Source: Candidatus Daviesbacteria bacterium
GTDB taxonomy: Bacteria > Patescibacteriota > Microgenomatia > Daviesbacterales > UBA10151
DNA length: 64,000 bases
Direction: 5' to 3'
Assembly (NCBI GenBank): GCA_016183245.1
Contig: JACPEY010000011.1
Span: 5,568 to 69,567 of the forward strand
Shown here piece by piece: positions 11,610 through 63,846 of the stretch (the first letter of the stretch is position 1; every line of letters begins with the position of its first letter). The notes beneath the pieces were generated by a model that was given only the letters and a program-made list of their open reading frames with translations, searched no databases and was not told the DNA's origin. The position numbers and the translations under genes are program-made.

Positions 11610-12819
11610 ATCCCAGAATTTCGTAAAAGCTTTTAAAAAGTTCGGGACTTTTTTTGGTTAATCTAAGTAAAAACTCTAATGCTTTAGGTGTATCCAGATT
11701 ATTGTCAAGGATCTGTATAAATTCATTATATTCTCTGGTTTGAATCTTTGTCATTCGGGGGAGGTCGAGACTTCGACCGACTCCAGAATCTGATTCTATA
11801 ATTTTCATATTCCTTTGGGCTTTTTGTAGATCTTTTTCTTTATATTCCCAGTCTTTGCTCCAGTGGCGGGAAAGTAGCAGCCACCTTATTGCATTAGGGG
11901 AGTATTTTTTTAGTAAATCTGAAACCATTATGAGATTGTCTTTAGATTTAGACATTCTTTGGCCACGATAGAAGGCTTGTCCTGTGTGAATCCAGTATTT
12001 TGCAAAAGGTGCTTTTCCGGTAGCTCCCTCGCTTTGGGCAATCTCTGCTTCATGATGAGGAAAGATTAAATCCCTGCCTCCTCCGTGAATATCGATCTGT
12101 TGTCCTAAGGTGGACATACTCATAGCAGAACATTCAATATGCCATCCCGGCCGGCCAGGTCCAAAAGGACTATCAAACGATGGGATATGGTCTGGAACTA
12201 CATTCCCACTTGCATTCCCACTTGACGAGTGGGAAGCTAAAGATCCCCGCCATAAAGTTATGTCCAGGGGATTTTTCTTATCCGGATTTCTTAAGTCTTC
12301 ATCAAATTCTTCAGCCTTTTTAATCATCTGCTTTTTTGTAAACTTGGATAATTTTCCATATTCAGGAAATCTGGAAATGTCTAAATATACAGAAGGACCT
12401 GTCTTATATGCATACCCATTTTGTAGCAGTGTATTAATTATTCGAATAATTGATACAAGTTGTTCTGAGGCTTTTAAATAATGGTCAGGAGGAGTCCAAT
12501 TTAGTACTTGCATATCCTGCAAAAACCTTTTGGTCCAAAAATCTGCCAGATCCTGCCAAGGTGTATTTTGTTCTTTGGCCCGTTGTAAAATATCTTTGTC
12601 GCGGTCATTGATATCCGTGACATTTTGGGTATAAATAACATTAAATCCTTTAAATTTTAAGTATCTGATGAGGACATCAAAAAAGATATAAGTAAAAGCA
12701 TGGCCTAAGTGGGTAGTATCATAAGGAGTAATCCCACAGACATAGATAGTAACTTTATTTTTGTGCAGCGGTTTAAATTCTTCCAGCCGTCGGCTTAAGG
12801 AGTTATAGATTTTCATCAC
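11599..12819 (-). CDS. cysS: Cysteinyl-tRNA synthetase.
   Basis: The HIGH motif (HLGHAFTY), KMSKS-like motif (RMSKS) and GRPGWHIECSAMS block are present. Confidence 0.85.
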   Translation of the reverse strand: MMKIYNSLSRRLEEFKPLHKNKVTIYVCGITPYDTTHLGHAFTYIFFDVLIRYLKFKGFNVIYTQNVTDINDRDKDILQRAKEQNTPWQDLADFWTKRFLQDMQVLNWTPPDHYLKASEQLVSIIRIINTLLQNGYAYKTGPSVYLDISRFPEYGKLSKFTKKQMIKKAEEFDEDLRNPDKKNPLDITLWRGSLASHSSSGNASGNVVPDHIPSFDSPFGPGRPGWHIECSAMSMSTLGQQIDIHGGGRDLIFPHHEAEIAQSEGATGKAPFAKYWIHTGQAFYRGQRMSKSKDNLIMVSDLLKKYSPNAIRWLLLSRHWSKDWEYKEKDLQKAQRNMKIIESDSGVGRSLDLPRMTKIQTREYNEFIQILDNNLDTPKALEFLLRLTKKSPELFKSFYEILGFTL

Positions 12820-15597: not shown

Positions 15598-15631
15598 AAA
15601 GACAGTCACAAGGACTGCTTTTTTTGTAAAG
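15598..15631 (-). terminator. Candidate bidirectional intrinsic terminator just 3' of tRNA-Lys(UUU).
   Basis: The stem-loop gacagtcacaaggactg is flanked by A-runs and T-runs on both strands. Confidence 0.4.
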
Positions 15632-15703
15632 TGAGCCGGCAGGGGATCGAACCCTGGACCAAGAGCTTAAAAGGCTCCTGCTCTACCGCTGAGCTACCGG
15701 CCC
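15632..15703 (-). tRNA. tRNA-Lys(UUU).
   Basis: A manual cloverleaf gives acceptor GGGCCGG/CCGGCUC, D-arm GCUCAGCGGUAGAGC, anticodon loop CUUUUAA and T-arm GGGUUCGAUCCCC. No CCA is encoded. Confidence 0.8.
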
Positions 15704-15784
15704 TCGCCCGCAACGCCAGCAAGCTGGCTTGCGTGGCGGGCGGGCCTCCTTGACGCAAACCAAACTCGTTTAACTAGCATTGCA

Positions 15785-16027
15785 TTAAATTCTATCCTTC
15801 AAAAACCGTCTGCCAAATCCTGTTTTAAAATACTGTTCCCTTCTAAACGCCTTATGCTTATCTGTGCAACCTTCAAAATAAACTAACTCTAATGGCCTTC
15901 TACTTTTAGTTGATTCTACTAACCCATCATTATGATCTTTAAGTCTTTGTTTTATAACAGATGTTGCTCCAACATAGAGCTTTCCATCCTTAATGCTTTT
16001 AAGAACATAAGTATAATAGAAACTCAT
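15785..16027 (-). CDS. GIY-YIG nuclease-superfamily protein (UPF0213-like).
   Basis: The motifs YTYVLKS...KLYVGATSVIKQRLKDHN are present. Confidence 0.65.
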   Translation of the reverse strand: MSFYYTYVLKSIKDGKLYVGATSVIKQRLKDHNDGLVESTKSRRPLELVYFEGCTDKHKAFRREQYFKTGFGRRFLKDRI

Positions 16028-18869: not shown

Positions 18870-19535
18870 TAAAATATATTCGCCTTTGGGATTTTTGAGA
18901 GTTTCCAGCCAACTTGAAACTGGTTTTGTTTCAACGCTTTGGTGGATTTTGGTCAGTTCATGAGCCAAAGTGATATTAATGTTTCCAAAAACTTCTTTAA
19001 TGCTTTCTATAATCCTGATTAATTTATGTGGAGCTGCAAACATTATATATGTCATCTCCCCGGGTGTCCTATCTGATTCACCCCCCAGGTGGATAAACTG
19101 AGAAAGGAATTTTTTTCTATGGCCGGGCTTTTCCGGCGGGTATCCTAAAAACATGAATTTATCAGGTGGCAGGCCGGATAAAGTAAGTGCTGTGATTGCT
19201 GATGACGGCCCTGGTAAGGAATCAACTTTAACTTCCTGTTGCAAGCACTCTCTGATTAGTTTATACCCGGGATCAGAAATTAAAGGGGTGCCGGCATCAG
19301 AAACCAGGGCCAAATTTTGGCCGTTTTTTAGACGATCGACAATAGTTTGTACACTTCGGGCTTCGTTATAGTCATTTAAAATAATTAGAGGTTTATGAAT
19401 GTTATAGTGGTTCAATAGCAGGGACGTTCTTCTGGTGTCTTCACAAATAATTCCATCAACTGACTCAAGAGTCTCTAGCGCTCTTAGGGTAATGTCTTTG
19501 AGATTGCCGATAGGAGTGGCGACAATATATAGCAT
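18852..19535 (-). CDS. rsmI: 16S rRNA (cytidine1402-2'-O)-methyltransferase RsmI (tetrapyrrole-methylase family) carrying an in-frame REP insertion.
   Basis: The family motifs LYIVATPIGNLKDITLRALETL and ICEDTRRT are present. The inserted peptide HLGGESDRTPGE is encoded by REP copy 2. Confidence 0.8.
   Translation of the reverse strand: MLYIVATPIGNLKDITLRALETLESVDGIICEDTRRTSLLLNHYNIHKPLIILNDYNEARSVQTIVDRLKNGQNLALVSDAGTPLISDPGYKLIRECLQQEVKVDSLPGPSSAITALTLSGLPPDKFMFLGYPPEKPGHRKKFLSQFIHLGGESDRTPGEMTYIMFAAPHKLIRIIESIKEVFGNINITLAHELTKIHQSVETKPVSSWLETLKNPKGEYILLFHPS
19057..19094. repeat. REP-like palindromic element, copy 2, inside the rsmI coding sequence.
   Basis: The sequence ccccgggtgtcctatctgattcaccccccaggtgga matches the family consensus. 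Confidence 0.6.
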
Positions 19536-27813: not shown

Positions 27814-30800
27814 ATGGCTGACAACACCTTTGAATATGACTTAACTTTGCCGCTGCCTCCAGAGGTAAAGGATAAGGATGTTGAGGTAAAAGCTGCTGAA
27901 ACAGAAGCAGAATTGCCTTCTGCACCTAAATTAGATGAGCCAAAAGAAAAGTTAGCAGAAACGATTACTATTAAAGGGTTAAATCACTTTACAGTTTTTG
28001 TGATAACTTTGCCCAGTCCGGATACTGCACAAAGGGTATTAATTAATGAAATATTACCAAACCCGACAGCCGGGGCAGAATGGGTAGAGCTGTTTAATAA
28101 TGGAACACAACCTGTTAATTTAGCAGCCGGGACTGGCTGGACTATAAGAAATTCAGCCTCTGATGCTCAATCTTTGAGTGCTTTGGGGACTATTCCGGCA
28201 GCAGGCAGGGTTGTATTTGAAGCCCCTGCAAACTGGTTAAGCAATGTTGCCCCAGAGACTGTTACTTTATCAAACGAGTTGGGTACAGCAGTTGATACAG
28301 TAACCATATCTTTAGTTGCGCCCGGATTTGCAATTGATCACTATCCTCTGGCAGGCGAGTCAGTCGGCAGAAAGACAGATGGCGTGGCAGAATGGGTAAT
28401 CTTTACAGCTCCGACAAAAGGGACAGCTAATTTACTACCGGCAACCGGCGGTGCGGGAAAATTGGCTGAAGTTGGACCAATTGCCCCAGCAGGTGGATTA
28501 AGAGCAGGATTCCCGGTTTGGTATAAAGATTCCAATGGTTTGGCTCTTGATTTGATGGAAGCGGCAGATCCGAGGGGGATTTCTGATCCTGTTGACCCTG
28601 GTAATCCATTTTCTGCTCAAATAGGATTTAATGCTGAAGGATTTTGGTGGTCTGCCGAAGCAGATATGTCAACCTCAGGACCAAATGGTGCTCTCCTAGT
28701 TCAGGCTATAGAAGCTGCATTTGCCGGAGAAGCTGCAGTAGATGGTGAGCAATCAGCCTTTGCCAGAGCCAGAATCAGGATTGATGTTGCCGAACCTGGA
28801 ACTTATACTGTAACTTATCCTTATGGCACAAAAACTTACACTGTAGCTTTGGCTGATATCGGCCCGGGATACGAGATTAATGATACTGCCGATATTGGTT
28901 GTTTTGCCATTCCGGGAGTACTAAATTGTGCCAGTGCGACCCAGCCTAATTTCTCAACGGTGCTAAATGGAGGAATCGGACCATTCTTAACCTGGGATAC
29001 CTTCAATACAAATCCGGCTCTTTCGGATCCGCTTTTGACTGATCCAATTACCGGAAGAAGATATGTAGGTAGTGTTTTAGGCGGGCCTCATGTAGTCAAA
29101 GGTTCTCCAACAGGTAATAATTTCTTTAGAATTGCCGGGCCAAATATCGGAGGACCAGGAGTAAATGTAGTAGAAACAAACCTATTTACTGTTACCGGAA
29201 GATTGGCAGATGCTACAGGTCCTGTTATAACCCTGCATGGGGCAAACCCAGTCAACGTCAATCAGAATGCTGTTTATACAGATGCAGGAGCCACAGCCTT
29301 GGACGACCAGGACGGAAATATAACTGCTAACATTCAAGTAACCGGTCTTCCTGTAGACACTTCAACTTTGGGATCTAAAACTGTGACCTACACCGTTACT
29401 GATAGTGCAGGCCATACTACAACAGCAACTAGAACTGTTAATGTAGTAGCTGTTGGAGGTATAGATATTACGGCTCCTGTTATTACGGTGACTGGTGCTA
29501 ATCCAGCAACAGTTACTGCCGGAACTCCGTATAACGATGCCGGGGCAACAGCATTAGATAATGTAGACGGAGATATTACAGCCAATATTGTGACCACCGG
29601 TCTACCAATAAATACTTCTGCACCCGGTTCATTTGCTGTAACTTATACTGTCTCTGATGCAGCCGGAAATCCTGCTACAGCCGCAAGGACTGTAAATGTG
29701 GTAGCAGATATTATTCCGCCGGTAATTACTGTGCTTGGATCAAATCCGGTAAACGTGCTTGTTGGTGCGGCATATACTGATGCCGGCGCTACAGCAGTAG
29801 ATAATGTTGATGGAAATGTAACAGTAAATATCACAACTACCGGCTTACCTATTAATACTGCTGCAGCCGGTTCATTTGCTGTAACTTATAATGTTACTGA
29901 TGCTGCAGGCAATACTGCTACAGCTACCAGAACTGTAAATGTAGCTGCAACTCTTCCTGCAGGACTTGTTGAAGTCGGACCCGTAGCCCCAGCAGGTGGA
30001 TTAAGAGCAGGATTCCCGGTTTGGTATAAAGATTCTAATGGTTTGGCTTTGGAATTAATGGAGGCAGCAGATCCAAATGGTATTTCTGCTGCTGTTGACC
30101 CTGGTAATCCATTTTCAGCTCAAATTGGTTTTGGTGCTGAAGGCTTTTGGTGGTCAGCCGATGCCAGTATATCTACTTCGGGGCCAAATGGTGCAATTTT
30201 AGTACAAGCTGTTGAAGCTGCATTTGCCGGAGAAGCTGCAGTAGATGGTGAGCAATCAGCCTTTGCCAGAGTCAGAATCAGGATTGATGTTGCCGAACCA
30301 GGATCTTATACTGTAACTTTCCCCTATGGTACAAAAACATATGTGGTAGATGCTGTAGGTGCAGGGTTTGAAATTAATGACACCTCAGATATTGGCTGTT
30401 TTGCCCAAATAGGAGTTGCCAGTTGTAATCAGGCCACACCTCCTAATTTCTCTACTGTACTTGCAGGTCAAATCGGACCATTCTTGACCTGGGATACCTT
30501 CAATACAAATCCGGCTCTTTCGGATCCTATCCTGACCAATATTGCAACCGGGAGAAGATATGTAGGTATTCCGGTGCCTCATGCAGTCAAAGGTTCTCCA
30601 ACAGGTAATAATTTCTTTAGAATTGCCGGGCCAAATATCGGAGGACCAGGAGTAAATGTAGTAGAGACTAATCTGTTTGATGTTACCGGACGCATAGCTG
30701 ATGTAACTCCTCCGGTTATCACTCTAAATGGTGCCAACCCGGATACTGTTGTACAAAATGCAGTATATGTGGACCCGGGATCCATAGCTTTGGATGACTT

Positions 30801-33606
30801 TGATGGAAATGTAACAGGTAGTATTGTAACTACAGGTGTGCCTGTTGATACATCTATAGTAGGCGCAAAAACTGTTACTTATACAGTTACTGATATAGCT
30901 GGTAATACAGCCGTTGCAACTAGAACAGTCAATGTAACCGGAGTAGATAACACTGCACCTGTCATTACCTTACTAGGTACTAGCCCTGTGGATGTCACAG
31001 TTGGCACGGCTTATGTTGATGCCGGTGCTACTGCTTTAGATAATGTAGATGGTGATCTAACAGCCAGTATAGTAACTGTTAATCCTGTAAACAGCAATGT
31101 TATTGGTACCTATACAGTTACTTACAACGTCTCAGATGCTGCCGGAAACCCTGCAATAGAAGTTACCAGGACGGTTAACGTAGTGGCTACGACTGATGTT
31201 ACTCCCCCAGTTTTCAGTGCTATTTCTGCAAGTTCTAATAATGCCAATCCGGCTTTGGGCAAAAGCGGTGATGTTGTGACTGTTTCTTTTGTCACCAGCG
31301 AGCCATTATCTGCCAATCCGACAGTGACTATTGGTGGTGGAGCAATGACTTTTGTCTCTCTGGCTGGTTCAACATACACATTTAACCGCACTCTGGATGG
31401 TACAGAGATTGAAAGCGGACAAATTTCCATCACCGGTTCTGATGCAGCCGGTAATCCAGGTGCCAATAATACTGCTACTTTTGCCTTGGACTTTGCACTT
31501 CCAACAGGATCGATTGCTATAAACGGTGGCGCCCTTTATACGACCACGACTGCAGTTATTTTAAATTTTTCCGGAGTTTCAGCTGATGTGACTCAAATTC
31601 AACTTCGAAACGGCACAGTTGGAGCTTTTCAGACAGCAATTCCTTTTGAAAATCCCCACGCTTATGTTTTACCTAATACCCAAGGGGTAAGAGTTGTATC
31701 TGTCCGTTTTATTGACGCAGCCGGAAATCAAAGTACCGGAGTAATTTCAGATGATATTACTTTTGATAATGTTGCCCCGACTGATCCATTGGACGTAGTT
31801 TCTACCAGCCACACTGCTAATGTATCTACGGACAATACTATTGATATGGCCTGGTCTGCGGCTGGTGCTCCTCTAGGAGCAAATGACTTGGTTAGCGGAG
31901 TAGCCGGCTATTCTTATTCTTTCACTCAAGGGGCAACTGATTTGCCTGATACTACAGTGGATTTGCCTTCAACTGCCTTGGGTGTAACCAGTGAAGCTCT
32001 AACAAATGGTACTTGGTTTTTCCACCTTAGAACTCTGGATAATGCCGGAAGTTGGACTTCAACTGTTCATGTTGGGCCATTTAATATTGATGTTGTGGTT
32101 CCGACTACAGGTACAATTTCCGGTTTGGTATTTCAGGATACAAACGCTAACCGCACCAAAGATGCGGGTGAACCGGTTCTGCCCGGATGGACGCTGTATC
32201 TGGATGCAAATAACAACAGGGTGCTGGATGCAGGGGAGGTATTAATTGTAAGCGATGCCGCAGGTAATTATCAGTTTGCAGGACTGCTTCCAGGAACTTA
32301 TAATATTAATGAAGTTAAACAGCCAAACTGGGGTATCAGGTTACCGGGAGACAATGGTTATACACAAATATTGGCTGCAGGGGATAATATCACAGGTAAG
32401 GATTTTGGGAATATAGTTACCCGGTCGGTTAGCGGCCAGGGCCAGGGAGGATTTGCAACAACTACCGGAACAACTCTGACGCCATCGGTTGTGTCAGTTG
32501 GCGACTCTGTCATTGATGTCCCTTCAAACGGGGGTACAAGCAAAGTGACAGTCCCTGCTGATACTATAATTACCGAAAGCACCGGCGCAGTTTTTGATTC
32601 GGCAGCTTTGGCAGCCTCTGACCCGGCTGGTGCGGTGATATCAGGGTTGGGAACAGGTGTTGTAGTTCGGGGAAAACTGCAATGGGGAGTTCCCAACTTA
32701 GGGTTAGTATTCTCAAACCCGATTAATTTGGAAATCTTTGTCGGTACAGATCTTAATGGGCAGGTACTTGATATACTGCGCTCAGTTGAAGGTACAACCA
32801 ACTGGACAAGTGACGGAATTGTGCCTCCGGGCAAATGCACGGTTGCAAACGGCATATGTGCGTTTCAGGCTACAAAAGCTTCATATTATATTGCAGCTCA
32901 AACTGTCAGTCCAACCCCGACACCTACTCCGACTCCTGCATCTGCTACTACCAGCGGTGGTGGAGATAGCGGAAGCGGTGGGGGAAGCGCCAGTGCTCCG
33001 TCTTGCAATGATCCTGTTGCAGGAGGCGCACCGACTTTACTCTCGGCAACTGTATCAGGAGACAATCAAGTTACCTTAACCTGGAGCAAAGCTGCTGATC
33101 CTGTAACACACTATGTAGTAGCTTACGGGTTATCAGCAGGCAACCCGCAATTTGGAAATCCAAATGTTGGCGGGAAAGAGACAACTTCTTATACAGTAAA
33201 AGATCTTTCAGGCGGTACAACTTATTTCTTCAGAGTCAGGGCAGGAAACGGTTGTAATGCCGGTCCTTACTCAAACGAAATATCAGCAACTCCCGGCGGA
33301 AGACAGACAACAGGTCCTGCAGCTGGTTTCCAGGCTGGAGTGTTAGGTGCTTCGACCTCGCTGGGAGAAGGCACGGGTGGTGCTGATCCTAATAACCCAG
33401 ACGCTCCTGATGCAGGCAAGGGTGAAGATGCAGTTACGGAAGGGATTTCTGATATCCTGGGTGCAGATCAGAAAGTAAGCGATAAACCTAACCAGTCATT
33501 TGGAGGTTTCTTGAATACTCAAAGGGCTATTATCGGGGTGTTGCTGCTATTCGTCGCACTCTTTGCTGCTAATGCTTATCGTCTAAGGGCCCGTCGCCGC
33601 AGTTAA
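27814..33606 (+). CDS. Giant 1930-aa surface protein with a lamin-tail domain, two copies of a ~250-aa module, about 6 DUF5011 Ig-like repeats, a Cna-B/SdrD-like fold, a PT linker, FN3, and a C-terminal TM plus basic tail.
   Basis: The lamin-tail motif INEILPNPTAGAEWVELFNNG is present. The DUF5011 repeats have the form PVITLxGxNPxxVxxGxxYxDxGATAxDxxDGxxT. The FN3 domain reads LTWSKAADPVTHYVVAYGL...YFFRVRAGN. The C-terminus is IIGVLLLFVALFAANAYRLRARRRS. Confidence 0.8.
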   Translation: MADNTFEYDLTLPLPPEVKDKDVEVKAAETEAELPSAPKLDEPKEKLAETITIKGLNHFTVFVITLPSPDTAQRVLINEILPNPTAGAEWVELFNNGTQPVNLAAGTGWTIRNSASDAQSLSALGTIPAAGRVVFEAPANWLSNVAPETVTLSNELGTAVDTVTISLVAPGFAIDHYPLAGESVGRKTDGVAEWVIFTAPTKGTANLLPATGGAGKLAEVGPIAPAGGLRAGFPVWYKDSNGLALDLMEAADPRGISDPVDPGNPFSAQIGFNAEGFWWSAEADMSTSGPNGALLVQAIEAAFAGEAAVDGEQSAFARARIRIDVAEPGTYTVTYPYGTKTYTVALADIGPGYEINDTADIGCFAIPGVLNCASATQPNFSTVLNGGIGPFLTWDTFNTNPALSDPLLTDPITGRRYVGSVLGGPHVVKGSPTGNNFFRIAGPNIGGPGVNVVETNLFTVTGRLADATGPVITLHGANPVNVNQNAVYTDAGATALDDQDGNITANIQVTGLPVDTSTLGSKTVTYTVTDSAGHTTTATRTVNVVAVGGIDITAPVITVTGANPATVTAGTPYNDAGATALDNVDGDITANIVTTGLPINTSAPGSFAVTYTVSDAAGNPATAARTVNVVADIIPPVITVLGSNPVNVLVGAAYTDAGATAVDNVDGNVTVNITTTGLPINTAAAGSFAVTYNVTDAAGNTATATRTVNVAATLPAGLVEVGPVAPAGGLRAGFPVWYKDSNGLALELMEAADPNGISAAVDPGNPFSAQIGFGAEGFWWSADASISTSGPNGAILVQAVEAAFAGEAAVDGEQSAFARVRIRIDVAEPGSYTVTFPYGTKTYVVDAVGAGFEINDTSDIGCFAQIGVASCNQATPPNFSTVLAGQIGPFLTWDTFNTNPALSDPILTNIATGRRYVGIPVPHAVKGSPTGNNFFRIAGPNIGGPGVNVVETNLFDVTGRIADVTPPVITLNGANPDTVVQNAVYVDPGSIALDDFDGNVTGSIVTTGVPVDTSIVGAKTVTYTVTDIAGNTAVATRTVNVTGVDNTAPVITLLGTSPVDVTVGTAYVDAGATALDNVDGDLTASIVTVNPVNSNVIGTYTVTYNVSDAAGNPAIEVTRTVNVVATTDVTPPVFSAISASSNNANPALGKSGDVVTVSFVTSEPLSANPTVTIGGGAMTFVSLAGSTYTFNRTLDGTEIESGQISITGSDAAGNPGANNTATFALDFALPTGSIAINGGALYTTTTAVILNFSGVSADVTQIQLRNGTVGAFQTAIPFENPHAYVLPNTQGVRVVSVRFIDAAGNQSTGVISDDITFDNVAPTDPLDVVSTSHTANVSTDNTIDMAWSAAGAPLGANDLVSGVAGYSYSFTQGATDLPDTTVDLPSTALGVTSEALTNGTWFFHLRTLDNAGSWTSTVHVGPFNIDVVVPTTGTISGLVFQDTNANRTKDAGEPVLPGWTLYLDANNNRVLDAGEVLIVSDAAGNYQFAGLLPGTYNINEVKQPNWGIRLPGDNGYTQILAAGDNITGKDFGNIVTRSVSGQGQGGFATTTGTTLTPSVVSVGDSVIDVPSNGGTSKVTVPADTIITESTGAVFDSAALAASDPAGAVISGLGTGVVVRGKLQWGVPNLGLVFSNPINLEIFVGTDLNGQVLDILRSVEGTTNWTSDGIVPPGKCTVANGICAFQATKASYYIAAQTVSPTPTPTPTPASATTSGGGDSGSGGGSASAPSCNDPVAGGAPTLLSATVSGDNQVTLTWSKAADPVTHYVVAYGLSAGNPQFGNPNVGGKETTSYTVKDLSGGTTYFFRVRAGNGCNAGPYSNEISATPGGRQTTGPAAGFQAGVLGASTSLGEGTGGADPNNPDAPDAGKGEDAVTEGISDILGADQKVSDKPNQSFGGFLNTQRAIIGVLLLFVALFAANAYRLRARRRS

Positions 33607-34514: not shown

Positions 34515-36548
34515 ATGGCAAAATTTCAAATTGTTTCAGATTTCAAACCTACTGGGGACCAACCACAAGCCATTGAGAAGCTGGTTAACGGGATAAATAA
34601 AGGCAGACAGCACCAGGTTTTGCTTGGAGTAACAGGTAGTGGTAAGACTTTTACTATGGCTAATGTTATCCAGAAAGTGCAAAGGCCGACCCTGGTTATT
34701 TCCCATAATAAAACTTTAGCAGGACAACTGGCTCAGGAGTTTAGGTCTCTGTTTCCAAATAACGCTGTTGAGTATTTTGTTTCTTATTATGATTATTACC
34801 AGCCAGAAGCGTATATTCCCCAATCAGATACTTATATTGAAAAGGAAACCCAGATTAATGAGGAAATAGAAAAGTTAAGGCTGTCTGCAACTGCATCACT
34901 GCTTAGCAGAAAAGATGTGATAGTAGTAGCCTCAGTTTCTGCAATCTATAACTTAGGTTCTCCAATAGAGTATGGCCAGGCAATACTGGAAATCGGCCCG
35001 GGCATGAAAGCCGGTATGCAGCAGGTGATGAAGATTTTGCAGAAGATGTTTTATAAGCGCAATGATATTGATTTTAAAAGGGGGACATACCGGGTCAGGG
35101 GTGATACGGTTGATATTTTTCCTTCATATAAAGATCAAGGTTACAGGTTACAATTTTTAGGGGACAGACTGGAGAGTGTAAGCGAGTTGGAGGTTGTGAC
35201 AGGTAATGTTTTAAAAATGCAGGGAACGCAGACTATTTATCCTGCCAAGCATTACATTACTTCGGAACAAAGGATTGTGCCGGGAATTAAACAAATAGAA
35301 ATCGATTTAGAATCTAGAGTCAAGAGTCTAGAGTCAAGTGGAAAATTGATAGAAGTGCAGAGATTAGACCAAAGGACAAATTATGATTTGGAGATGATCC
35401 GGCAATTCGGGTACTGCAACGGAATTGAAAATTACTCCCGCTATTTTGACGGCCGGAACCCCGGGGACCCTCCATATACTTTGCTTCATTACTTTCCTCA
35501 AGACTTTTTGCTCGTTATTGATGAATCCCATATGACTATCCCTCAAATTCGGGGGATGTATAACGGGGACCGGTCAAGGAAGGAAACTTTAATAGATTTT
35601 GGGTTCAGGCTGCCTTCGGCTTTGGATAACAGGCCCTTAAAGTTTGATGAGTTTATGAGGATGATTAACCAGGCAGTTTATGTTTCAGCCACTCCGGATG
35701 AGTATGAATTATCCCTAGCGAATTCATCCCACCTGGGGGGTGGTCTAGATAGGACACCTAGGGGTACTGATGGGTTGTATAGCCATGATGGGATAGCGGA
35801 ACAATTGGTCAGGCCAACTGGGATTTTGGATCCGGAGGTTTCTGTAAGACCGATTAAAGGTCAAATTGAAGATTTATTAAGAGAAATAGAGACTAGAGTC
35901 AAGAGTCAGGAAAGGGTATTGATAACAACTTTAACCAAAAGAACAGCTGAAGATTTGGCAGATTATTTAAAGGAAAAAGGCATTAAGGTGCACTATCTGC
36001 ACTCTGATGTTAAAACTTTAGAAAGAGGGGATATTTTACAGGCTTTGAGGTTGGGGGAATATGATGTGATTGTGGGAATTAATTTACTTCGGGAAGGTCT
36101 GGATTTGCCGGAAGTTTCACTGGTGGCAATTTTAGATGCTGATAAGGAAGGGTTTTTAAGGTCCAGGACTTCTTTGATACAGACCATGGGCAGGGCTGCC
36201 AGGCATGTTAGAGGGCAGGTAATTATGTATGCCGACATTGTCACCAAATCCATGAAAGCAGCCATAGATGAGGTAAAAAGAAGGAGGAAATATCAGGCAG
36301 ATTACAATAAAAAACATAATATTACGCCGAGAAGCATAGAAAAAGCTTTACGGGAAAGGTTGATAGAGAAAGTAGAGGAGCTGGAAGAATCTTTGGGTAA
36401 AACAGATTTAACTGTTGATGATATTCCGGTAGAGGATCGGAAAAAAATGATTAAAAACCTGGAAGCCCAGATGAAACAGGCAGCAGAACTTTTAGACTTT
36501 GAAGAAGCTGCCAAAATTCGGGATCAGATTAAGGAGTTAAGTATTTAG
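34515..36548 (+). CDS. uvrB: Excinuclease ABC subunit B (UvrB) carrying an in-frame REP insertion.
   Basis: Walker A (GVTGSGKT), helicase motifs, the VRPTGILDP block and the C-terminal UVR motif (EEAAKIRDQI) are present. The region between YEL and QLVRPTG is about 20 aa longer than the E. coli UvrB sequence recalled from memory, and it contains HLGGGLDRTPRGT. Confidence 0.9.
   Translation: MAKFQIVSDFKPTGDQPQAIEKLVNGINKGRQHQVLLGVTGSGKTFTMANVIQKVQRPTLVISHNKTLAGQLAQEFRSLFPNNAVEYFVSYYDYYQPEAYIPQSDTYIEKETQINEEIEKLRLSATASLLSRKDVIVVASVSAIYNLGSPIEYGQAILEIGPGMKAGMQQVMKILQKMFYKRNDIDFKRGTYRVRGDTVDIFPSYKDQGYRLQFLGDRLESVSELEVVTGNVLKMQGTQTIYPAKHYITSEQRIVPGIKQIEIDLESRVKSLESSGKLIEVQRLDQRTNYDLEMIRQFGYCNGIENYSRYFDGRNPGDPPYTLLHYFPQDFLLVIDESHMTIPQIRGMYNGDRSRKETLIDFGFRLPSALDNRPLKFDEFMRMINQAVYVSATPDEYELSLANSSHLGGGLDRTPRGTDGLYSHDGIAEQLVRPTGILDPEVSVRPIKGQIEDLLREIETRVKSQERVLITTLTKRTAEDLADYLKEKGIKVHYLHSDVKTLERGDILQALRLGEYDVIVGINLLREGLDLPEVSLVAILDADKEGFLRSRTSLIQTMGRAARHVRGQVIMYADIVTKSMKAAIDEVKRRRKYQADYNKKHNITPRSIEKALRERLIEKVEELEESLGKTDLTVDDIPVEDRKKMIKNLEAQMKQAAELLDFEEAAKIRDQIKELSI
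35727..35764. repeat. REP-like palindromic element, copy 3 (reverse orientation), inside the uvrB coding sequence.
   Basis: The sequence tcccacctggggggtggtctagataggacacctagggg matches the family consensus in reverse. Confidence 0.65.
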
Positions 36549-37803: not shown

Positions 37804-37840
37804 TTCCACCTGGGGGGTGGGCTAGGTAGGACACCTAGGG
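37804..37840. repeat. REP-like palindromic element, copy 4, at the 3' flank of the RAYT.
   Basis: The sequence tccacctggggggtgggctaggtaggacacctaggg matches the family consensus. Confidence 0.65.
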
Positions 37841-37862
37841 AAATTAGATAATTTCAAGTTTA

Positions 37863-38612
37863 CTATTCCTGTACGAGATGTTGAATTTTATGAAGTTGTC
37901 TTTGATAATCGGCATGGTCTTCGATAAATTTTTGATAAACCTTAGGATTTATGAAAAGGCTCATTATTATATCTAAATTACAAATCTCAGCCTTATTACT
38001 TAGATATTCAGAGAGGGATGACCAGGGATATGCAAATAAGGTATTTAGATCCTTTACGACGTAGGAGGTATAGGGATTGAGATGAATGTATCTTGAAATG
38101 TGTATTAACTGTTCATCAGTTATGATTAGTTTAGCTTTAAATTGATCTAAGAAGAGTGATCCATCGCGTTCTCTTTTAGTATTAGAATATCTAGTGTAGC
38201 TATTTTGAAAATTCCCCAAAAATTTAGAAATTCCCTTATCTTTAATTTGTTTTATTAAAAAATGGAAATGATTTGGCATTAAACAAAAAGCCAGAATTTC
38301 TACAAGCTTATCATCTTCTTTCCTCAAATTATCCATAATTTTTGTCCGGTCATCATTTGAAAGTGTTAGAAATTTTGATAATTTAGCGGGAAGATTGCTG
38401 AATCTATAGAAGTCGATTACAAGCCTTGCTCTTTTGTATTCCAGTTTATCTAAGAAAGTTGGTTGATGATTTATCCCACGGTTAAAAACATGATAAATTT
38501 GGTCATTAACTAAAGGTGTTAATCTACCCGGCATATTTCTTAGAATAACCCTGATATCCCTAGGTGTCAATAGAAATCCACCCCCCAGGTGGACTATACT
38601 ATTCAGATTCAA
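37863..38612 (-). CDS. REP-associated tyrosine transposase (RAYT; IS200/IS605-like Y1 HUH transposase).
   Basis: The N-terminal block YHVFNRGINHQPTF, the HUH motif NHFHFLI and the catalytic-Tyr block RYIHLNPY are present. The first ~17 codons (HLGGGFLLTPRD) are REP-encoded, so the real start may be the internal Met at ~38534. Confidence 0.75.
   Translation of the reverse strand: MNLNSIVHLGGGFLLTPRDIRVILRNMPGRLTPLVNDQIYHVFNRGINHQPTFLDKLEYKRARLVIDFYRFSNLPAKLSKFLTLSNDDRTKIMDNLRKEDDKLVEILAFCLMPNHFHFLIKQIKDKGISKFLGNFQNSYTRYSNTKRERDGSLFLDQFKAKLIITDEQLIHISRYIHLNPYTSYVVKDLNTLFAYPWSSLSEYLSNKAEICNLDIIMSLFINPKVYQKFIEDHADYQRQLHKIQHLVQE
38558..38594. repeat. REP-like palindromic element, copy 5, at the 5' end of the RAYT.
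   Basis: The sequence ccctaggtgtcaatagaaatccaccccccaggtgga matches the family consensus. Confidence 0.65.
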
Positions 38613-39294
38613 TACTGCCGGAGCCTTCCTGTTCTTTGTTGACTTGTGGGGGTTCTTCTCTTAGAAAATATTGAATTGTTGGATCATCTTCTTCCCATTT
38701 TTTTATTTTTTCGCGGGCTTCAGTGTTTAAATCGCGTCCTGCAACGGGGATTATTTCCTTTCCCAATCTGTTTAGGATTCCTAATACTTTAGGATCAGCA
38801 ATAGTTTCTCCTGTAACCGGATCCAAGTCTTCATAACTAACCGCAATTTCATCAAATGGGAGTTCTAATGCTCCTTGTAAAGGTATACTGGAAAAATGGC
38901 CTGTCTCCTTCCTTAATTTTTGTGCTTCCTCAATTGACAAAGTTCCTCTTGCTACCCCTAAAGGAATATAAGGATTTGAGGGTTTTTCTTCCTCATTAAG
39001 AGTCCCTCCCTGTAAAGTAATTTCCTGATAGGTTTTAAAGTCAAGTGCCATATACTTAGTATAATTTATTTGATCACGCTCTGCTACTTCACTCTTTAAT
39101 AATCTTGCAAAATGGGGTAAAATAATAGTTTGATTTTTCGAAGAAAAATAGTCCCACGGTTTATTTTTCGGGGAAAATATGGCTATAGACAAAATTACTA
39201 TTAAAGGTGCTAGAGAACATAATTTAAAAAATATTGACCTGGAAATTCCTAAGAACAAGTTAGTGGTTTTAACCGGGATCTCCGGTTCAGGCAA
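38599..39294 (-). CDS. Hypothetical protein with an uncertain start (the annotated 5' end overlaps the uvrA start).
   Basis: The ORF overlaps the first ~115 nt of uvrA on the opposite strand. An internal Met near 39054 is the more plausible start. Confidence 0.3.
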   Translation of the reverse strand: MPEPEIPVKTTNLFLGISRSIFFKLCSLAPLIVILSIAIFSPKNKPWDYFSSKNQTIILPHFARLLKSEVAERDQINYTKYMALDFKTYQEITLQGGTLNEEEKPSNPYIPLGVARGTLSIEEAQKLRKETGHFSSIPLQGALELPFDEIAVSYEDLDPVTGETIADPKVLGILNRLGKEIIPVAGRDLNTEAREKIKKWEEDDPTIQYFLREEPPQVNKEQEGSGSIESE

Positions 39295-42265
39295 GTCTTC
39301 CCTGGCTTTTGATACCCTTTATGCCGAAGGTCAAAGAAGGTATGTAGAATCTTTATCTTCCTATGCCCGGCAGTTTTTGGGAGTCATGGATAAGCCTGAT
39401 GTAGATTTGATTGAAGGTCTTTCTCCTGCGATTTCTATTGACCAAAAAGGTGTCTCACACAATCCTCGCTCTACAGTTGGAACCACCACGGAAATTTACG
39501 ATTATTTAAGGCTTTTATTTGCCCGGGTTGGCCATCCTCATTGTCCTGTATGCGGTAGGGAAGTTGCCAAGATGAGCGTAGAGCAAATTACTCAACTTGT
39601 CATTCTGGGGAGAAGCGGAGCGACGACTCCAGAATCTATTACTAAGGATTCTGGACAAGCCAGAATGACAAAAAGGGGCAGGAGAATAATGATTTTGGCG
39701 CCGGTGGTTAAAGACAGGAAAGGCGAGTACAGCCAGTTATTTGAAGATTTCAGGAAAAAAGGGTTTTCTAAAGTCAGGGTTGGCGGATATATAATAGACC
39801 TGGCTGATGATTTGGTATTAATTAAAACAAATAAGCATACGATTGATCTGGTTGTAGATAGGCTTGTTTTAGATAAGAGTGTCATTCTGGGAGTCCCGAC
39901 GAAGTCGCGGACGACACCAGAATCAACGAATCAGTTAGATTCTGGACGCGCCCCTTCAGGGCCTGCCAGAATGACAAAAGAAAGTAAAGATAGTACTCAA
40001 GCAGACAATATTTACTCAAGATTGTCACAAAGCATTGAGACAGCGCTTAAATTTGGTGAGGGATCAGTGATAGTTTCTGATGTGCTGGATGCTTCTTTGG
40101 AATTCCCTCAAAATCCTAAAAAAATGGAGGACCATCTTTACTCGGAAAGATTTGCCTGTCCTGTAGACAATATCTCGCTGAGCGAGATTGAACCCAGACT
40201 TTTGTCTTTTAACTCTCCTCACGGAGCCTGTCCAAAATGTTCAGGATTAGGGAATCTTTTAGAAATTGATGCAGCTACAATTTTAAATCCAATTCTCTCT
40301 ATAGCAGAGGGCGGAATTCTGCCTATGTCAAAGCTTGCCACAAGTGATACCTGGTATACAAGGCTTATTGAAGCAGTGGGTAAAAAATATGGCTTTGATA
40401 CAAATACAAGGCTGGGGAATCTGACAGCTGAAGCCAAAAAGATATTGCTTTATGGTGGCGCAGATGAAGAATTTAAAGTAGAAGGCAGGAACAGACAGGG
40501 GAAGTGGACTCATTTTTATTCTGAATTTGCCGGGCTGGTGCCTTATCTTAAGGAAAGATATACAACAACTGAGTCGGATTTTGTTAAGGCCGAAATTGAA
40601 AAATATATGGTCAAAGAAACCTGTCCGAAGTGTAAAGGAGCAAGACTTAAAGATGAAGCACTTTCAATAACTATAGATGGATTAAACATTGCAGAAGTTA
40701 CCAGCCAGTCAATTGTTCAGGCTTTGGACTGGATCAAAAGAATTTCCGCTCGTAATGATGGGAAGGTATTAAGTGAGCGTGAGGCACAGATAGCAAGTCC
40801 TATTTTAAAAGAAATTAATGCCAGGTTGCAGTTTTTGATTGATGTGGGATTGGATTATCTGACTTTAGACAGGGCTGCCATGACTCTGGCGGGAGGAGAA
40901 TCACAAAGGATCAGGCTTGCTTCCCAGATCGGTTCAGGGCTTTCCGGAGTATTGTATGTTTTAGACGAGCCTTCAATAGGGTTGCATCAAAGGGATAATA
41001 CCAGGTTGATTGAAACTTTAAAAAAACTCAGGAATCTGGGTAATACTGTGATTGTTAATGAACATGATGCTGAAACAATGGAGGCATCGGATCTTCTGAT
41101 CGAAATTGGTCCGGGAGCCGGTGAACACGGCGGGCAGATTGTAGCTATAGGAACGCCTGATGAAATTAAGAAAAATCCCGCATCGACAACCGGCCAGTAT
41201 TTATCCGGAAATAAAAAAGTCGGAGCAAATATTCTTCAAGCACAGCGAGAATCTTCCTTAAAAACTATTAATAAATATGTGCTTAAAATTTTGGGTGCTT
41301 CTGAACATAACTTAAAAAATATTGACGTTTCTTTCCCCCTGGGAAAATTTATAGTAATTACAGGTGTTTCCGGTTCAGGTAAATCAACTTTAATTCATGA
41401 TATTTTATTTAAAGCTCTAGCCCAAAAAGTTTACCGCTCCAGGGAAAAACCCGGGCTGCATAGGGGCCTGGAAGGAACAGAGAATATAGATAAGGTAGTA
41501 TTGGTAGACCAGTCGCCTATTGGCCGCACTCCCCGTTCAAATCCGGCTACATATACCGGGGCATTTACCCACATCCGGGAGCTGTTTGCCCAAAGCCCGG
41601 AAGCAAAAATCAGAGGCTATAACCCGGGCAGATTTTCCTTTAATGTCAAAGGAGGAAGGTGTGAAGTTTGTGAGGGAGAGGGTACTTTAAAGATTGAGAT
41701 GCAGTTTTTACCGGATGTGTATGTAAGTTGTGAGTCATGTAACGGAGCAAGGTATAACAGGGAAGCTTTGGAAATCTATTTTAAGGAGAAAAATATTGCC
41801 CAGGTTCTGGATATGACGGTTGAAACTGCTTTAAAGTTTTTTGAAAATATTCCTCAGGTTAAAAACAAGCTGCAGGTTTTATTTGATGTGGGGTTGGGGT
41901 ACATTAAGCTGGGACAGCCTGCACCTACTCTTTCAGGAGGAGAAGCCCAAAGGATTAAACTTTCTTCAGAATTATCAAAACGTTCTACAGGACAAACAGT
42001 ATATATTCTTGATGAACCTACAACAGGCTTGCATTTTGCCGATATCGAAAGACTTCTAATGATCCTGAGGAAGTTAGTTAATGTGGGGAATACAGTAATA
42101 ATAATAGAACATAACCTGGATGTGATAAAAAATACTGACTGGGTAATAGATTTAGGCCCTGAAGGCGGAGACAAGGGGGGGAAAATTGTCGCCCAAGGTA
42201 CTCCTGTCCAAATTGCCAAAATTAAAGATTCTTACACCGGCATGTATCTTGCAAAAATACTTTAA
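39179..42265 (+). CDS. uvrA: Excinuclease ABC subunit A (UvrA) carrying two in-frame palindromic-element insertions.
   Basis: Two ABC modules are present, each with Walker A GxSGSGKS (GISGSGKSSL, GVSGSGKSTL), signature LSGGE and Zn-finger CxxC pairs. At 1028 aa it is longer than the ~940 aa typical of UvrA. The extra segments are ...TTPESITKDSGQARMTKRG... and ...TTPESTNQLDSGRAPSGPARMTKES... Confidence 0.9.
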   Translation: MAIDKITIKGAREHNLKNIDLEIPKNKLVVLTGISGSGKSSLAFDTLYAEGQRRYVESLSSYARQFLGVMDKPDVDLIEGLSPAISIDQKGVSHNPRSTVGTTTEIYDYLRLLFARVGHPHCPVCGREVAKMSVEQITQLVILGRSGATTPESITKDSGQARMTKRGRRIMILAPVVKDRKGEYSQLFEDFRKKGFSKVRVGGYIIDLADDLVLIKTNKHTIDLVVDRLVLDKSVILGVPTKSRTTPESTNQLDSGRAPSGPARMTKESKDSTQADNIYSRLSQSIETALKFGEGSVIVSDVLDASLEFPQNPKKMEDHLYSERFACPVDNISLSEIEPRLLSFNSPHGACPKCSGLGNLLEIDAATILNPILSIAEGGILPMSKLATSDTWYTRLIEAVGKKYGFDTNTRLGNLTAEAKKILLYGGADEEFKVEGRNRQGKWTHFYSEFAGLVPYLKERYTTTESDFVKAEIEKYMVKETCPKCKGARLKDEALSITIDGLNIAEVTSQSIVQALDWIKRISARNDGKVLSEREAQIASPILKEINARLQFLIDVGLDYLTLDRAAMTLAGGESQRIRLASQIGSGLSGVLYVLDEPSIGLHQRDNTRLIETLKKLRNLGNTVIVNEHDAETMEASDLLIEIGPGAGEHGGQIVAIGTPDEIKKNPASTTGQYLSGNKKVGANILQAQRESSLKTINKYVLKILGASEHNLKNIDVSFPLGKFIVITGVSGSGKSTLIHDILFKALAQKVYRSREKPGLHRGLEGTENIDKVVLVDQSPIGRTPRSNPATYTGAFTHIRELFAQSPEAKIRGYNPGRFSFNVKGGRCEVCEGEGTLKIEMQFLPDVYVSCESCNGARYNREALEIYFKEKNIAQVLDMTVETALKFFENIPQVKNKLQVLFDVGLGYIKLGQPAPTLSGGEAQRIKLSSELSKRSTGQTVYILDEPTTGLHFADIERLLMILRKLVNVGNTVIIIEHNLDVIKNTDWVIDLGPEGGDKGGKIVAQGTPVQIAKIKDSYTGMYLAKIL
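39599..39669. repeat. MITE-like palindromic element (GTCATTCTGG...CCAGAATGAC termini), copy A, inside uvrA.
   Basis: A 10-bp perfect terminal inverted repeat and an internal palindrome ccagaatc...gattctgg are present. Confidence 0.6.
39881..39975. repeat. MITE-like palindromic element (GTCATTCTGG...CCAGAATGAC termini), copy B, inside uvrA.
   Basis: It has the same 10-bp terminal inverted repeat as copy A and is about 95 bp long. Confidence 0.6.
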
Positions 42266-52652: not shown

Positions 52653-52996
52653 CTTCTACTACGCTTTTCAGGCTATAGGATTAGTTATAGGAGGTGATTA
52701 TCGTAAATGTTACCTTTGGATGTGATTAGAAAATATTATCCTGACTTATCAGATGAAGAATTGAAAAAAATACAGGTGTTTGTTTACCAGTTATGTTGTG
52801 GATTAATGCAATACTTTTATGGAGACAACTGGGAAGGGGATACTGGTGATCCGGACTTGAAAAATGAAGAAGGTTGATATAACAACCTAATCATGAGTTC
52901 GAATCCTAAGCGGTCTCTCGTTTATAGGATTAAATCTAAGCAATTTTTCTCGAATTGCCGAAGCTAAAATTTTGCAAAAGCACTTATATCATCCTG

Positions 52997-53068
52997 TGAG
53001 CCGGGTGGGATTCGAACCCACGGCCAATGGATTAAGAGTCCATTGCTCTACCGCTGAGCTACCGGCCC
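52997..53068 (-). tRNA. tRNA-Lys(CUU).
   Basis: A manual cloverleaf gives acceptor GGGCCGG/CCGGCUC, anticodon stem AUGGA/UCCAU, loop CUCUUAA and T-arm GUGGGUUCGAAUCCCAC. Confidence 0.8.
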
Positions 53069-53263
53069 GTTATAATCTATCTTTCAAAAACTTTCTTCCA
53101 AATCCTGTCTTAAAATATCTTTCTCTTTTCAATTCAATGAGTCCCGCCCGCAACGCCTGAGCAAGCTTCAACATCAAACTACATTGTATATTCTAACAAT
53201 TTATGCTCAAAATGTCATTTCTGGGAACAGAGGGAACAGAAAAGAGGGGTGCTGTAATAATCA

Positions 53264-62792: not shown

Positions 62793-63803
62793 ATGAAAAT
62801 TGGTTATATCGGTCTTGGCAGGATGGGGAAGAATATGGTCCTCAACCTTTTGGAAAAAGGGATTGAGGTGGTGGCATATAACCGGTCCCCTGAGCCCAGG
62901 GAAGAGCTGCAAAAAGAAGCCAGCCAGTTAAAAAGCGGATCAGAGAATTTAAAGGTAGCAGATAATCTGGGAGAGTTGGTGACAGAGTTAAGGAATAATA
63001 AAGAAGATCCTGGACAAGCCAGGATGACAGAAGGGGAGGACGGAATTGTGATCTGGTTAATGATCTCTGCCGGTGCAGCCATTGACGCTGTTTTGGAGGA
63101 ATTAAGCGATAAATTAACTTCCGGAGATCTGGTAATTGATGGCGGAAATTCCCTTTATACAGATACTTTAAGGCGGGGTAAGATGCTTTCCCAAAAAGGA
63201 ATCCATTACATGGATGCCGGCACTTCCGGCGGAATTGAGGGAGCAAGGAATGGGGCTTGTATCATGGCAGGCGGTTCTGAGGAGGATTTTAAGAAAGTGG
63301 AGCCTGTATTAAAAGCTGCTGCACAACCGGGCGCTTATGCTTATCTGGGTCCTCTGGGTGCAGGTCACTTTGCCAAAACAATTCATAACGGAATTGAGTA
63401 TGGCATGATGCAGGCAATCGGGGAAGGTGCGGCAATTTTGAAAAATTCCGGGTTTCCTTATGATTTGCGGGAAGTTTTCCGTATTTACAATACCGGCTCA
63501 ATTATTGAATCAAGGCTGGTGGGATGGACTTTGGCAGAACTTAAAAATGACCCTGAACTTGCCAATATTACCTCTGTTATCGGTTCAGGAGGTGGTGCAG
63601 GTAAAACAAAAGGAGAAGCTCACTGGACAGTGGAACTGGCTAAAAAATTAGGGGTAGGTGTGCCGGTTATAGAAGCATCGGTAGCAGTCCGGGACAACTC
63701 TGATCAGGATAAGGAAGATTCTCCCAATGGTTTCCGTAATAAAATAGTTGCTGCCATGCGCTGGCAATTCGGCAGACATCCGGTTAAGAAACAAATTCCC
63801 TAG
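62793..63803 (+). CDS. gnd: 6-phosphogluconate dehydrogenase (decarboxylating), short YqeC/Gnd-like form. It carries a probable partial palindromic-element insertion, and its stop codon is supplied by a REP.
   Basis: NAD-binding IGYIGLGRMGKNM and the catalytic blocks GTSGGIEGARNG and KTIHNGIEYGMMQAIGEG are present. The extra segment NNKEDPGQARMTEGEDG at 63001-63030 resembles the right end of the uvrA elements. The TAG stop lies inside REP copy 6. Confidence 0.8.
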   Translation: MKIGYIGLGRMGKNMVLNLLEKGIEVVAYNRSPEPREELQKEASQLKSGSENLKVADNLGELVTELRNNKEDPGQARMTEGEDGIVIWLMISAGAAIDAVLEELSDKLTSGDLVIDGGNSLYTDTLRRGKMLSQKGIHYMDAGTSGGIEGARNGACIMAGGSEEDFKKVEPVLKAAAQPGAYAYLGPLGAGHFAKTIHNGIEYGMMQAIGEGAAILKNSGFPYDLREVFRIYNTGSIIESRLVGWTLAELKNDPELANITSVIGSGGGAGKTKGEAHWTVELAKKLGVGVPVIEASVAVRDNSDQDKEDSPNGFRNKIVAAMRWQFGRHPVKKQIP

Positions 63804-63833
63804 GTGTTCTATCTAGACCACCCCCCAGGTGGA
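63798..63833. repeat. REP-like palindromic element, copy 6, overlapping the gnd stop codon.
   Basis: The sequence ccctaggtgttctatctagaccaccccccaggtgga matches the family consensus. Confidence 0.65.
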
Positions 63834-63846
63834 TAAAAATAAAGTT

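Follow-up and report, generated by a model that had tools for sequence, protein, structure and literature searches.

A single intact TGTC/CGTC-tagged REP unit carried in frame in gnd of Candidatus Daviesbacteria

The 64-kb stretch of low-GC DNA analysed here (the window; ~39% GC) encodes gnd, a short-type 6-phosphogluconate dehydrogenase (6PGDH) from a Candidatus Daviesbacteria bacterium. The product carries the Pfam domains NAD_binding_2 (2.5e-41) and 6PGD, has PDB relatives in 8ihe and 6xeq, and is 100% identical to an NCBI-named Candidatus Daviesbacteria protein that is present on six contigs. The ORF is intact, the invariant residues of the 6PGDH family are all retained, and the protein is conserved apart from one short loop, within which lies a hairpin-forming repeat with its own flanks:

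62793..63803, plus strand: gnd, short-type 6-phosphogluconate dehydrogenase, 336 aa (ORF and Pfam), host of the REP unit
62994..63005, plus strand: left flank AAT AAT AAA GAA (N68-E71), which appears to match the left end of an older insertion in relatives
63006..63029, minus strand: complete single REP unit, 24 bases (sequence, hairpin fold, exact 22-mer in metagenomes)
63029-63026, minus strand: tag TGTC (sequence)
63025-63019, minus strand: first stem arm ATCCTGG (sequence)
63018-63014, minus strand: loop CTTGT, ACAAG on the plus strand (sequence)
63013-63007, minus strand: second stem arm CCAGGAT (sequence)
63006, minus strand: tail C (sequence)
63006..63032, plus strand: unit-encoded 27 nt, nine codons, DPGQARMTE (D72-E80) (codon layout, AF2 model)
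63033..63044, plus strand: right flank GGG GAG GAC GGA (G81-G84), candidate decayed tag end of an older CGTC unit

Read on the minus strand, the unit is TGTC-ATCCTGG-CTTGT-CCAGGAT-C, that is, a tag, a 7-bp stem, a 5-nt loop and a tail. All four parts are complete, and the unit is intact. Folded as RNA, the hairpin has a free energy of -10.6 kcal/mol on the plus strand (z = -3.2) and -9.2 kcal/mol on the minus strand. Stop codons are absent from five of its six reading frames, and the peptide DPGQARMTE is also present in other proteins that bear the unit.

The AlphaFold (AF2) model of the gnd product has a mean pLDDT of 91, which falls below 50 solely at residues 71-81; these are the unit-encoded DPGQARMTE stretch, situated between the helix of residues 59-67 and the strand of residues 86-89. 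The loop is thus predicted by the model to be a disordered surface loop. We aligned the best 120 orthologues of the protein. The junction is compact in 104 of the 120, reading ..ELVxxL-E-x-P-R-VIWLMVTAG, so that just E-x-P-R connects the helix with the VIWLM strand. Extra residues exactly at the insertion point are found in 16, the query included, and the short unit itself has no counterpart in 119 of these 120 closest orthologues. The original prediction had placed an insertion between the helix and this strand that short 6PGDHs normally lack, and the alignment agrees. The 15 other insert-bearing orthologues have different, REP-type hairpins. A separate Lys/Asn-rich insertion (WKNKKIHNSKFIIHNS) lies further upstream, in the same inter-strand region, of a Levyibacteria-named 6PGDH (P0073); this second kind of insertion indicates that the region of the Rossmann domain tolerates several insert types.

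Two further housekeeping genes of the window, uvrA and cysS, contain elements of the same family:

39179-42265: uvrA gene, with two composite elements inside
39598..39670, plus strand: REP dimer 1 in uvrA (fold -31.8 kcal/mol, z = -5.2)
39880..39976, plus strand: REP dimer 2 in uvrA, with longer apical hairpins (fold -48.1 kcal/mol, z = -6.7)
11599-12819, minus strand: cysS ORF (CysRS; Pfam tRNA-synt_1e)
11749..11790, plus strand, with the gene on the minus strand: single long-type unit in cysS, DSGVGRSLDLPRMT in the sense of the gene

The composite layout in uvrA is a long-type unit, TGTC-ATTCTGG-GGAG..apical hairpin..CTCC-CCAGAAT-C, followed by a linker and an inverted short-type unit, G-ATTCTGG-loop-CCAGAAT-GACA. 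Dimer 1 consists of a long-type unit (TGTC-ATTCTGGGGAG...CTCCAGAAT-C), a linker and the short unit G-ATTCTGG-ACAAG-CCAGAAT-GACA, which is the comparison partner of the gnd segment. Compared with the UvrA structure 2r6f, dimer 1 adds ~20 residues and dimer 2 is a clean insertion of 43 residues (query 233-275). The gnd and cysS units have identical orientation and frame relative to their host genes. With two dimers in uvrA and one unit each in cysS and gnd, gnd is, as had been proposed, the third housekeeping gene of the window to carry the family.

The resemblance between gnd and the right end of uvrA dimer 1 that started this work is real: gnd 63006-63036 (GATCCTGGACAAGCCAGGATGACAGAAGGGG) and uvrA 39647-39677 (GATTCTGGACAAGCCAGAATGACAAAAAGGG) are identical at 27 of 31 bases. 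Both copies are read in one frame, as D-[SP]-G-Q-A-R-M-T, which bears out the shared GQARMT peptide. The local alignment of the two scores 48, against a maximum of 28 among 2000 shuffles, and a 21-mer pattern with up to three mismatches matches only these two places in 64 kb (mean of 0.00 hits in 100 shuffles, none of which had two). Past the unit (63030-63052; GGGG-AGGA..GAAT..TGAT) the likeness to uvrA is weak when taken alone, since ~2% of shuffles or real windows score equally; a homology extending downstream of the unit (p ~0.02 alone) was left unused. No further ATCCTGG-type copy was seen within the window.

Outside the window the unit is abundant. Exact copies of its 22-mer, ATCCTGGACAAGCCAGGATGAC, are present in at least 120 metagenome contigs. 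This count, together with the shuffle controls, bears on the idea that the segment is a native, lineage-specific loop of the enzyme whose likeness to uvrA is fortuitous: 15 other orthologues do have loops at the site, and similarity past the unit is only marginal, but chance would have to account for an exact 22-mer in that many unrelated contigs and for an alignment score reached by none of 2000 shuffles, in a loop that is variable and predicted to be disordered. We regard such a coincidence as hardly credible, and treat the segment as a member of the repeat family of the uvrA elements.

The same count separates the gnd unit from its uvrA relative. The two stem differences between them (T>C and A>G) are complementary and preserve the 7-bp stem, and since the gnd 22-mer is found exactly in so many contigs, they mark a separate, abundant stem variant. 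Being an exact copy of that variant, the gnd unit is poorly described as the uvrA unit in decayed or compensated form. The original prediction, a degenerate half-copy, therefore holds in part: the gnd element is a single unit where those in uvrA are two-unit dimers, but it is not degenerate. One could still suppose that it is the decayed half of a former two-unit element in gnd, or a copy of the right end of uvrA dimer 1 that acquired two compensatory mutations later. The family most often occurs as dimers, in the DNA scanned here as in the published account (PMC3733652), singletons in Pseudomonas have been reported as dimer remnants, and within the window the nearest copy is indeed the uvrA unit. 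For a lost partner, however, there is no space, as conserved host coding sequence (SENLKVADNLGELVTEL) reaches up to R67 upstream of the unit, and two exactly complementary substitutions are less parsimonious than an ATCCTGG-type donor; with a complete unit identical to a variant abundant in its own right, we consider both versions unlikely. In the family at large a partner tag is recognisable within 120 nt upstream in 168 of 214 copies and in none of the other 46, a number that is an upper bound because several of these retain a partner remnant. Single units are a normal state of the family.

Among the metagenome matches listed, ATCCTGGACAAGCCAGGATGAC in most cases pairs with CGTCATTCTGG...CCAGAATC units as their right-hand partner; some contigs have no recognisable upstream partner. 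For the sister variant we scanned species-representative genomes with ATTCTGGAC-N(1-30)-GCCAGAATGACA and matched at least 120 genome stretches; most of the matches listed are the exact 23-mer ATTCTGGACAAGCCAGAATGACA. Their sources, again among the matches listed, are Nitrospirota/Thermodesulfovibrionales, Gammaproteobacteria, Ignavibacteria, Bacteroidota, Desantisbacteria and many CPR groups, and include two other Daviesbacteria. As an observation in its own right, a hairpin of 22-23 nt is base-identical across more than 10 phyla (L008-L127 and L128-L247, among the matches listed), while the other unit of the dimer is specific to the lineage, being ATTCCCG-CTTGT-CGGGAAT in Nitrospirota and ATTCTGGGGAG..CTCCAGAAT in CPR. 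Viral contigs carrying the unit number just three, and we have set aside carriage by phages on that ground. Two contigs have head-to-tail arrays of units with constant short spacers (L058 56-113, with 12-nt spacers; L059 6398-6513, with 50-nt units and 16-nt spacers), an arrangement unlike the usual inverted dimer.

The 1.66 Mb of DNA that we collected has 281 sites of the pattern tag-AT-N5-CTTGT-N5-AT, and in 277 of them the 7-bp stem is perfect. These stems represent nine distinct sequences (ATTCTGG, ATCCTGG, ATTCCCG, ATTCCGA, ATTCCGG, ATTCCAG, ATGCTGG and others), which is clear covariation for a hairpin. The tag is TGTC in 210 cases and CGTC in 67. The loop CTTGT is identical in the gnd unit, the uvrA unit and all scanned copies, and the tail is always C-first, most commonly CTT (88 copies; the gnd unit is one of this kind) or CCT (50). 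The gnd unit belongs, then, to a very abundant cross-phylum repeat family in which compensatory changes keep the hairpin.

Intragenic copies, those within ORFs of 200 codons or more, make up 11 of 98 for the ATTCTGG variant and 37 of 122 for the ATCCTGG variant; they are read chiefly as D[SP]GQARMT or SWTSQ[ND]D. Many other housekeeping proteins carry the unit in frame. Pfam was used to identify ten of the hosts: MutS, RecJ, topoisomerase I (TopA), a Cu-type P-ATPase, GatA, an RNase_T-family exonuclease, transketolase, GatB, ArgRS and an ATP-dependent DNA ligase. The peptides DPGQARMT, SWTSQDD and VILG..TPES in CPR proteins should be annotated as repeat-encoded loops and not as functional motifs. 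A MutS-like ORF (L130) has two separate repeat-encoded inserts, ..TPRHSGDPSADQGSRIKGRSWTNPDDT.. and ..SFWEARTSPESVQQFDPGQARMTE.., an echo of the double hits in uvrA. In another contig (L232) a lone ATCCTGG unit lies ~20 nt upstream of the start ATGAAGATTGGTTATATAG of a gene that begins MKIGYI..., an N-terminus as in 6PGDH, which could point to a further link between the family and gnd or could be fortuitous.

Base-level conservation across phyla and strict covariation of the stem are also what a hairpin under selection would leave behind, for instance a signal for mRNA stability or processing, a translational pause site in gnd, or a DNA site for a host protein. The orientation of intragenic ATCCTGG copies is biased with respect to the coding strand (30 sense, 7 antisense), and many REPs have been argued to be transcribed and to act as RNA in the paper that defined the class (PMC3733652). 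Against a function of this kind in gnd, the unit is missing in all but one of the 120 closest orthologues and the site in relatives holds unrelated hairpins or none; the family is scattered through unrelated genes and intergenic DNA; and no Rfam family matches the uvrA copies, a scan of 39400-40200 giving two noise-level hits of 17.9 and 14.9 bits against gathering thresholds of 50 and 61. We judge a selected function very unlikely for the gnd unit. Selection on the hairpin, at the level of RNA or DNA function, could nonetheless be what keeps the unit base-identical to the consensus, in place of a recent arrival.

At the gnd site, two relatives (L003 and L006) carry a GAT-CGC-CAC-GTC..CCCGC-TTA-GCGGG..CGC-GAT-GAC hairpin, two others (L002 and L005) a ..CCC-TTCGACTCCGCTCA-GGG.. 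hairpin, and one (L004) a G-ATTGCCACGTCGCCTTCGGCTCCTCGCAAT-GAC hairpin. These hairpins have the form GAT-CGC...GCG-ATGAC or GAT-TGC...GCA-ATGAC, with flanks in common with the window, and all insert-bearing relatives end in [GA]ATGAC-xxx-ATT. On the antisense strand each reads as a long-type unit tagged CGTC or TGTC (TGTC-ATTGCGAGGAGC-CGAAG-GCGACGTGGCAAT-C is one example), and units of this kind, CGTC-ATTGCGAGG...GCAAT-C, are found elsewhere (L036, L108 and L123). As relatives bear other REP-type hairpins at this position, the loop is a recurrent REP site, and a site with differing hairpins across relatives offers a convenient natural system for the turnover of units inside essential genes. 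In the closest relative (L001; P0002, 84-89% identity) the site holds only AAT CAA AGC GAT GAC AAG GGT. A neighbour-joining tree scatters the insert-bearing orthologues among empty ones; we do not use it to count gains and losses, for which 272 columns at ~80% identity give too weak a resolution. Their monophyly was discarded on the same tree, weakly resolved as it is.

The window shares both outer flanks with the inserts of relatives, and between these flanks lies the short ATCCTGG unit. On the left, AATAAAGAAGATC in the window matches AATAAACAAGATC in L006 at 12 of 13 positions (MAFFT alignment). On the right, GAGGACGGAATT stands against GATGACGGGATT in L006, and judging by this alignment the right flank is probably the decayed tag end of an older long-type CGTC unit, GATGACGG having become GAGGACGG. 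The tail-side junction is shared as well, the short unit of the window and the long units of relatives all ending ...AA-G|AT.... From the common flanks with the short unit between them we infer that the site was not virgin: the lineage would earlier have held an older long-type CGTC unit there, which decayed or was deleted as in L001, and the short unit would have replaced its interior or inserted into the remnant, leaving the tail-side junction unchanged.

A bolder extension of this history is that the gnd loop may act as a landing pad for REPs, at which units with different stems succeed each other at an unchanged tail-side junction. We think this doubtful. It would call for homing or gene conversion under the direction of a putative trans-acting enzyme, which would recognise a TGTC/CGTC hairpin that is base-identical in more than 10 phyla, and phyletic co-occurrence might then expose the missing protein that mobilises CGTC REPs.

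How the unit arrived can be approached from its boundaries. No target-site duplication is enriched at any boundary offset in the 46 copies without and the 168 copies with an upstream partner tag, and we did not find a clean pair of empty and filled sites for the gnd unit, so that unit boundaries and mode of arrival are given here as we infer them. GAAG is found on both sides of the gnd unit (23 + 4 = 27 nt); as a duplication it was rejected, there being no enrichment over the 214 copies, and we treat it as chance or as a typical purine-rich flank, not a feature of the family. A Y1/RAYT-like gene lies in the window at 37863-38612 on the minus strand, and its product shares 45% identity with the Pfam Y1_Tnp protein of L003. 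Y1-type genes adjoin uvrA in the window and gnd in L003. The gene of the window has a different hairpin repeat, CCACCTGGGGGGTGG...ACACCTAGGG, on its two sides in inverted orientation, and not TGTC units; in L003, L112 and L180, too, the hairpins around the Y1 genes are unrelated. As none of the four is flanked by units of the family, we reject the Y1/RAYT transposase as the mobiliser on present evidence, and examination of these Y1 genes did not reveal a mobilising enzyme.

The second hairpin repeat around the Y1 gene, TCCACCTGGGGGGTGG-CTAGrTAGGACACCTAGGG, is unrelated to the TGTC units and forms a REPtron-like layout just upstream of uvrA. Its copies in the window are as follows:

37805-37845: copy of the second hairpin repeat
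38557-38597: copy
19057-19097: copy
35729-35763: copy
63797-63837: copy
11381-11407: partial copy

The copies other than those around the Y1 gene lie at gene ends, and one overlaps the stop codon of gnd (cccTAGgtg). In L003 the homologous Y1 gene is directly downstream of gnd, flanked by CCTACCTCGGAGGTAGG..ACACCTAGGG.

Among described systems, the elements come closest to the CGTC-tagged REPs, families CGTC-1 to CGTC-4, of Di Nocera, De Gregorio and Rocco (BMC Genomics 2013; PMC3733652). As described there, such REPs have a terminal CGTC, often TGTC and in a variant CCTC, beside a stem of 8-9 bp that opens with two A-T pairs; a 4-5-nt loop that belongs to one of a few recurrent types; and a short unpaired tail, mostly CCA. 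By the same account they are predominantly inverted dimers with some singletons, have no associated transposase, and are often in frame in uvrA, uvrB, recBCD, polymerases and tRNA synthetases, with two dimers in uvrA of Thioalkalivibrio and two inserts in each uvrA gene of Opitutus (PMC3733652). The gnd unit likewise has its TGTC tag directly beside the stem, a 5-nt loop and a C-first tail. Its family also comprises inverted dimers and singletons, with in-frame copies in uvrA (two dimers in one gene), in repair genes and in tRNA synthetases, and no transposase gene is flanked by its units in the window, L003, L112 or L180. The stem, ATCCTGG/CCAGGAT, starts with A-T and T-A but has 7 bp, not 8-9, and the tail is C-T-T where the published one is mostly CCA. 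At the level of the class the elements of the window thus fit the CGTC/TGTC-tagged REPs, with slight deviations in stem and tail. The hosts seen here, CPR bacteria (Daviesbacteria) and Nitrospirota, fall outside the five phyla in which that paper reports the class (PMC3733652), and our results extend the class to both. A literature search found no description of TGTC units in CPR, and searching with sequence strings gave only primer noise.

Members of the class in the same classification are Neisseria dRS3 (CGTC-1) and Rickettsia RPE-4 (CGTC-4) and RPE-6 (CGTC-1) (PMC3733652). The two Rickettsia elements are short palindromic repeats that sit in frame in housekeeping proteins and add surface peptides, as here, but they belong to a different lineage, and the likeness is that of the classification by Di Nocera et al. 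With dRS3 (ATTCCC-N8-GGGAAT) the left units of the Nitrospirota dimers, TGTC-ATTCCCG-CTTGT-CGGGAAT-C, share the ATTCCC...GGGAAT stem, although dRS3 is found in intergenic clusters. The dRS3 repeats of Neisseria serve as integration sites for phages or IS elements; no integration feature of this kind was seen at gnd. REPs and REPINs of the GTAG type share several features with the family: the hairpin bears a tetranucleotide tag at its 5' end, units form inverted dimers, a target-site duplication is lacking, and mobilisation is presumed to be single-stranded. The gnd unit is, however, tagged TGTC and not GTAG or GTGG, and another repeat flanks the RAYT-like gene of the window, unlike in GTAG REPs with their RAYT transposases (REPtrons). 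Species specificity, moreover, is reported for GTAG REPs (PMC6006769), whereas the TGTC unit is identical across phyla. A classical MITE, with terminal inverted repeats and a target-site duplication, differs in the latter feature, as no duplication is enriched in the 214 copies.

The gnd segment is one intact TGTC/CGTC-tagged REP unit, carried in frame in gnd of Candidatus Daviesbacteria. It is most likely (a probability of about 0.8) selfish or neutral DNA that the protein tolerates in a permissive loop, and a function in the enzyme is not needed to explain it. The unit would spread as a hairpin, probably single-stranded, by way of a putative trans-acting enzyme, and would survive in gnd by virtue of a loop that tolerates extra residues. 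It reveals neither a new mechanism nor a new enzyme function; it is real but ordinary for its class.

Two other features of the window are unrelated to the repeat family. The ORF at 27814-33606 (1930 aa), of higher GC (~45%), contains internal tandem repeats of 243 nt (29208-29948) and duplicated blocks of 1.5 kb (28467-29384 and 29970-30875). Two tRNA-Lys genes (TTT and CTT anticodons) are present at 15631-15847 and 52996-53132; the ~63-nt segments downstream of them are 79% identical, which points to either a duplicated module of tRNA and flank or a promoter region in common.
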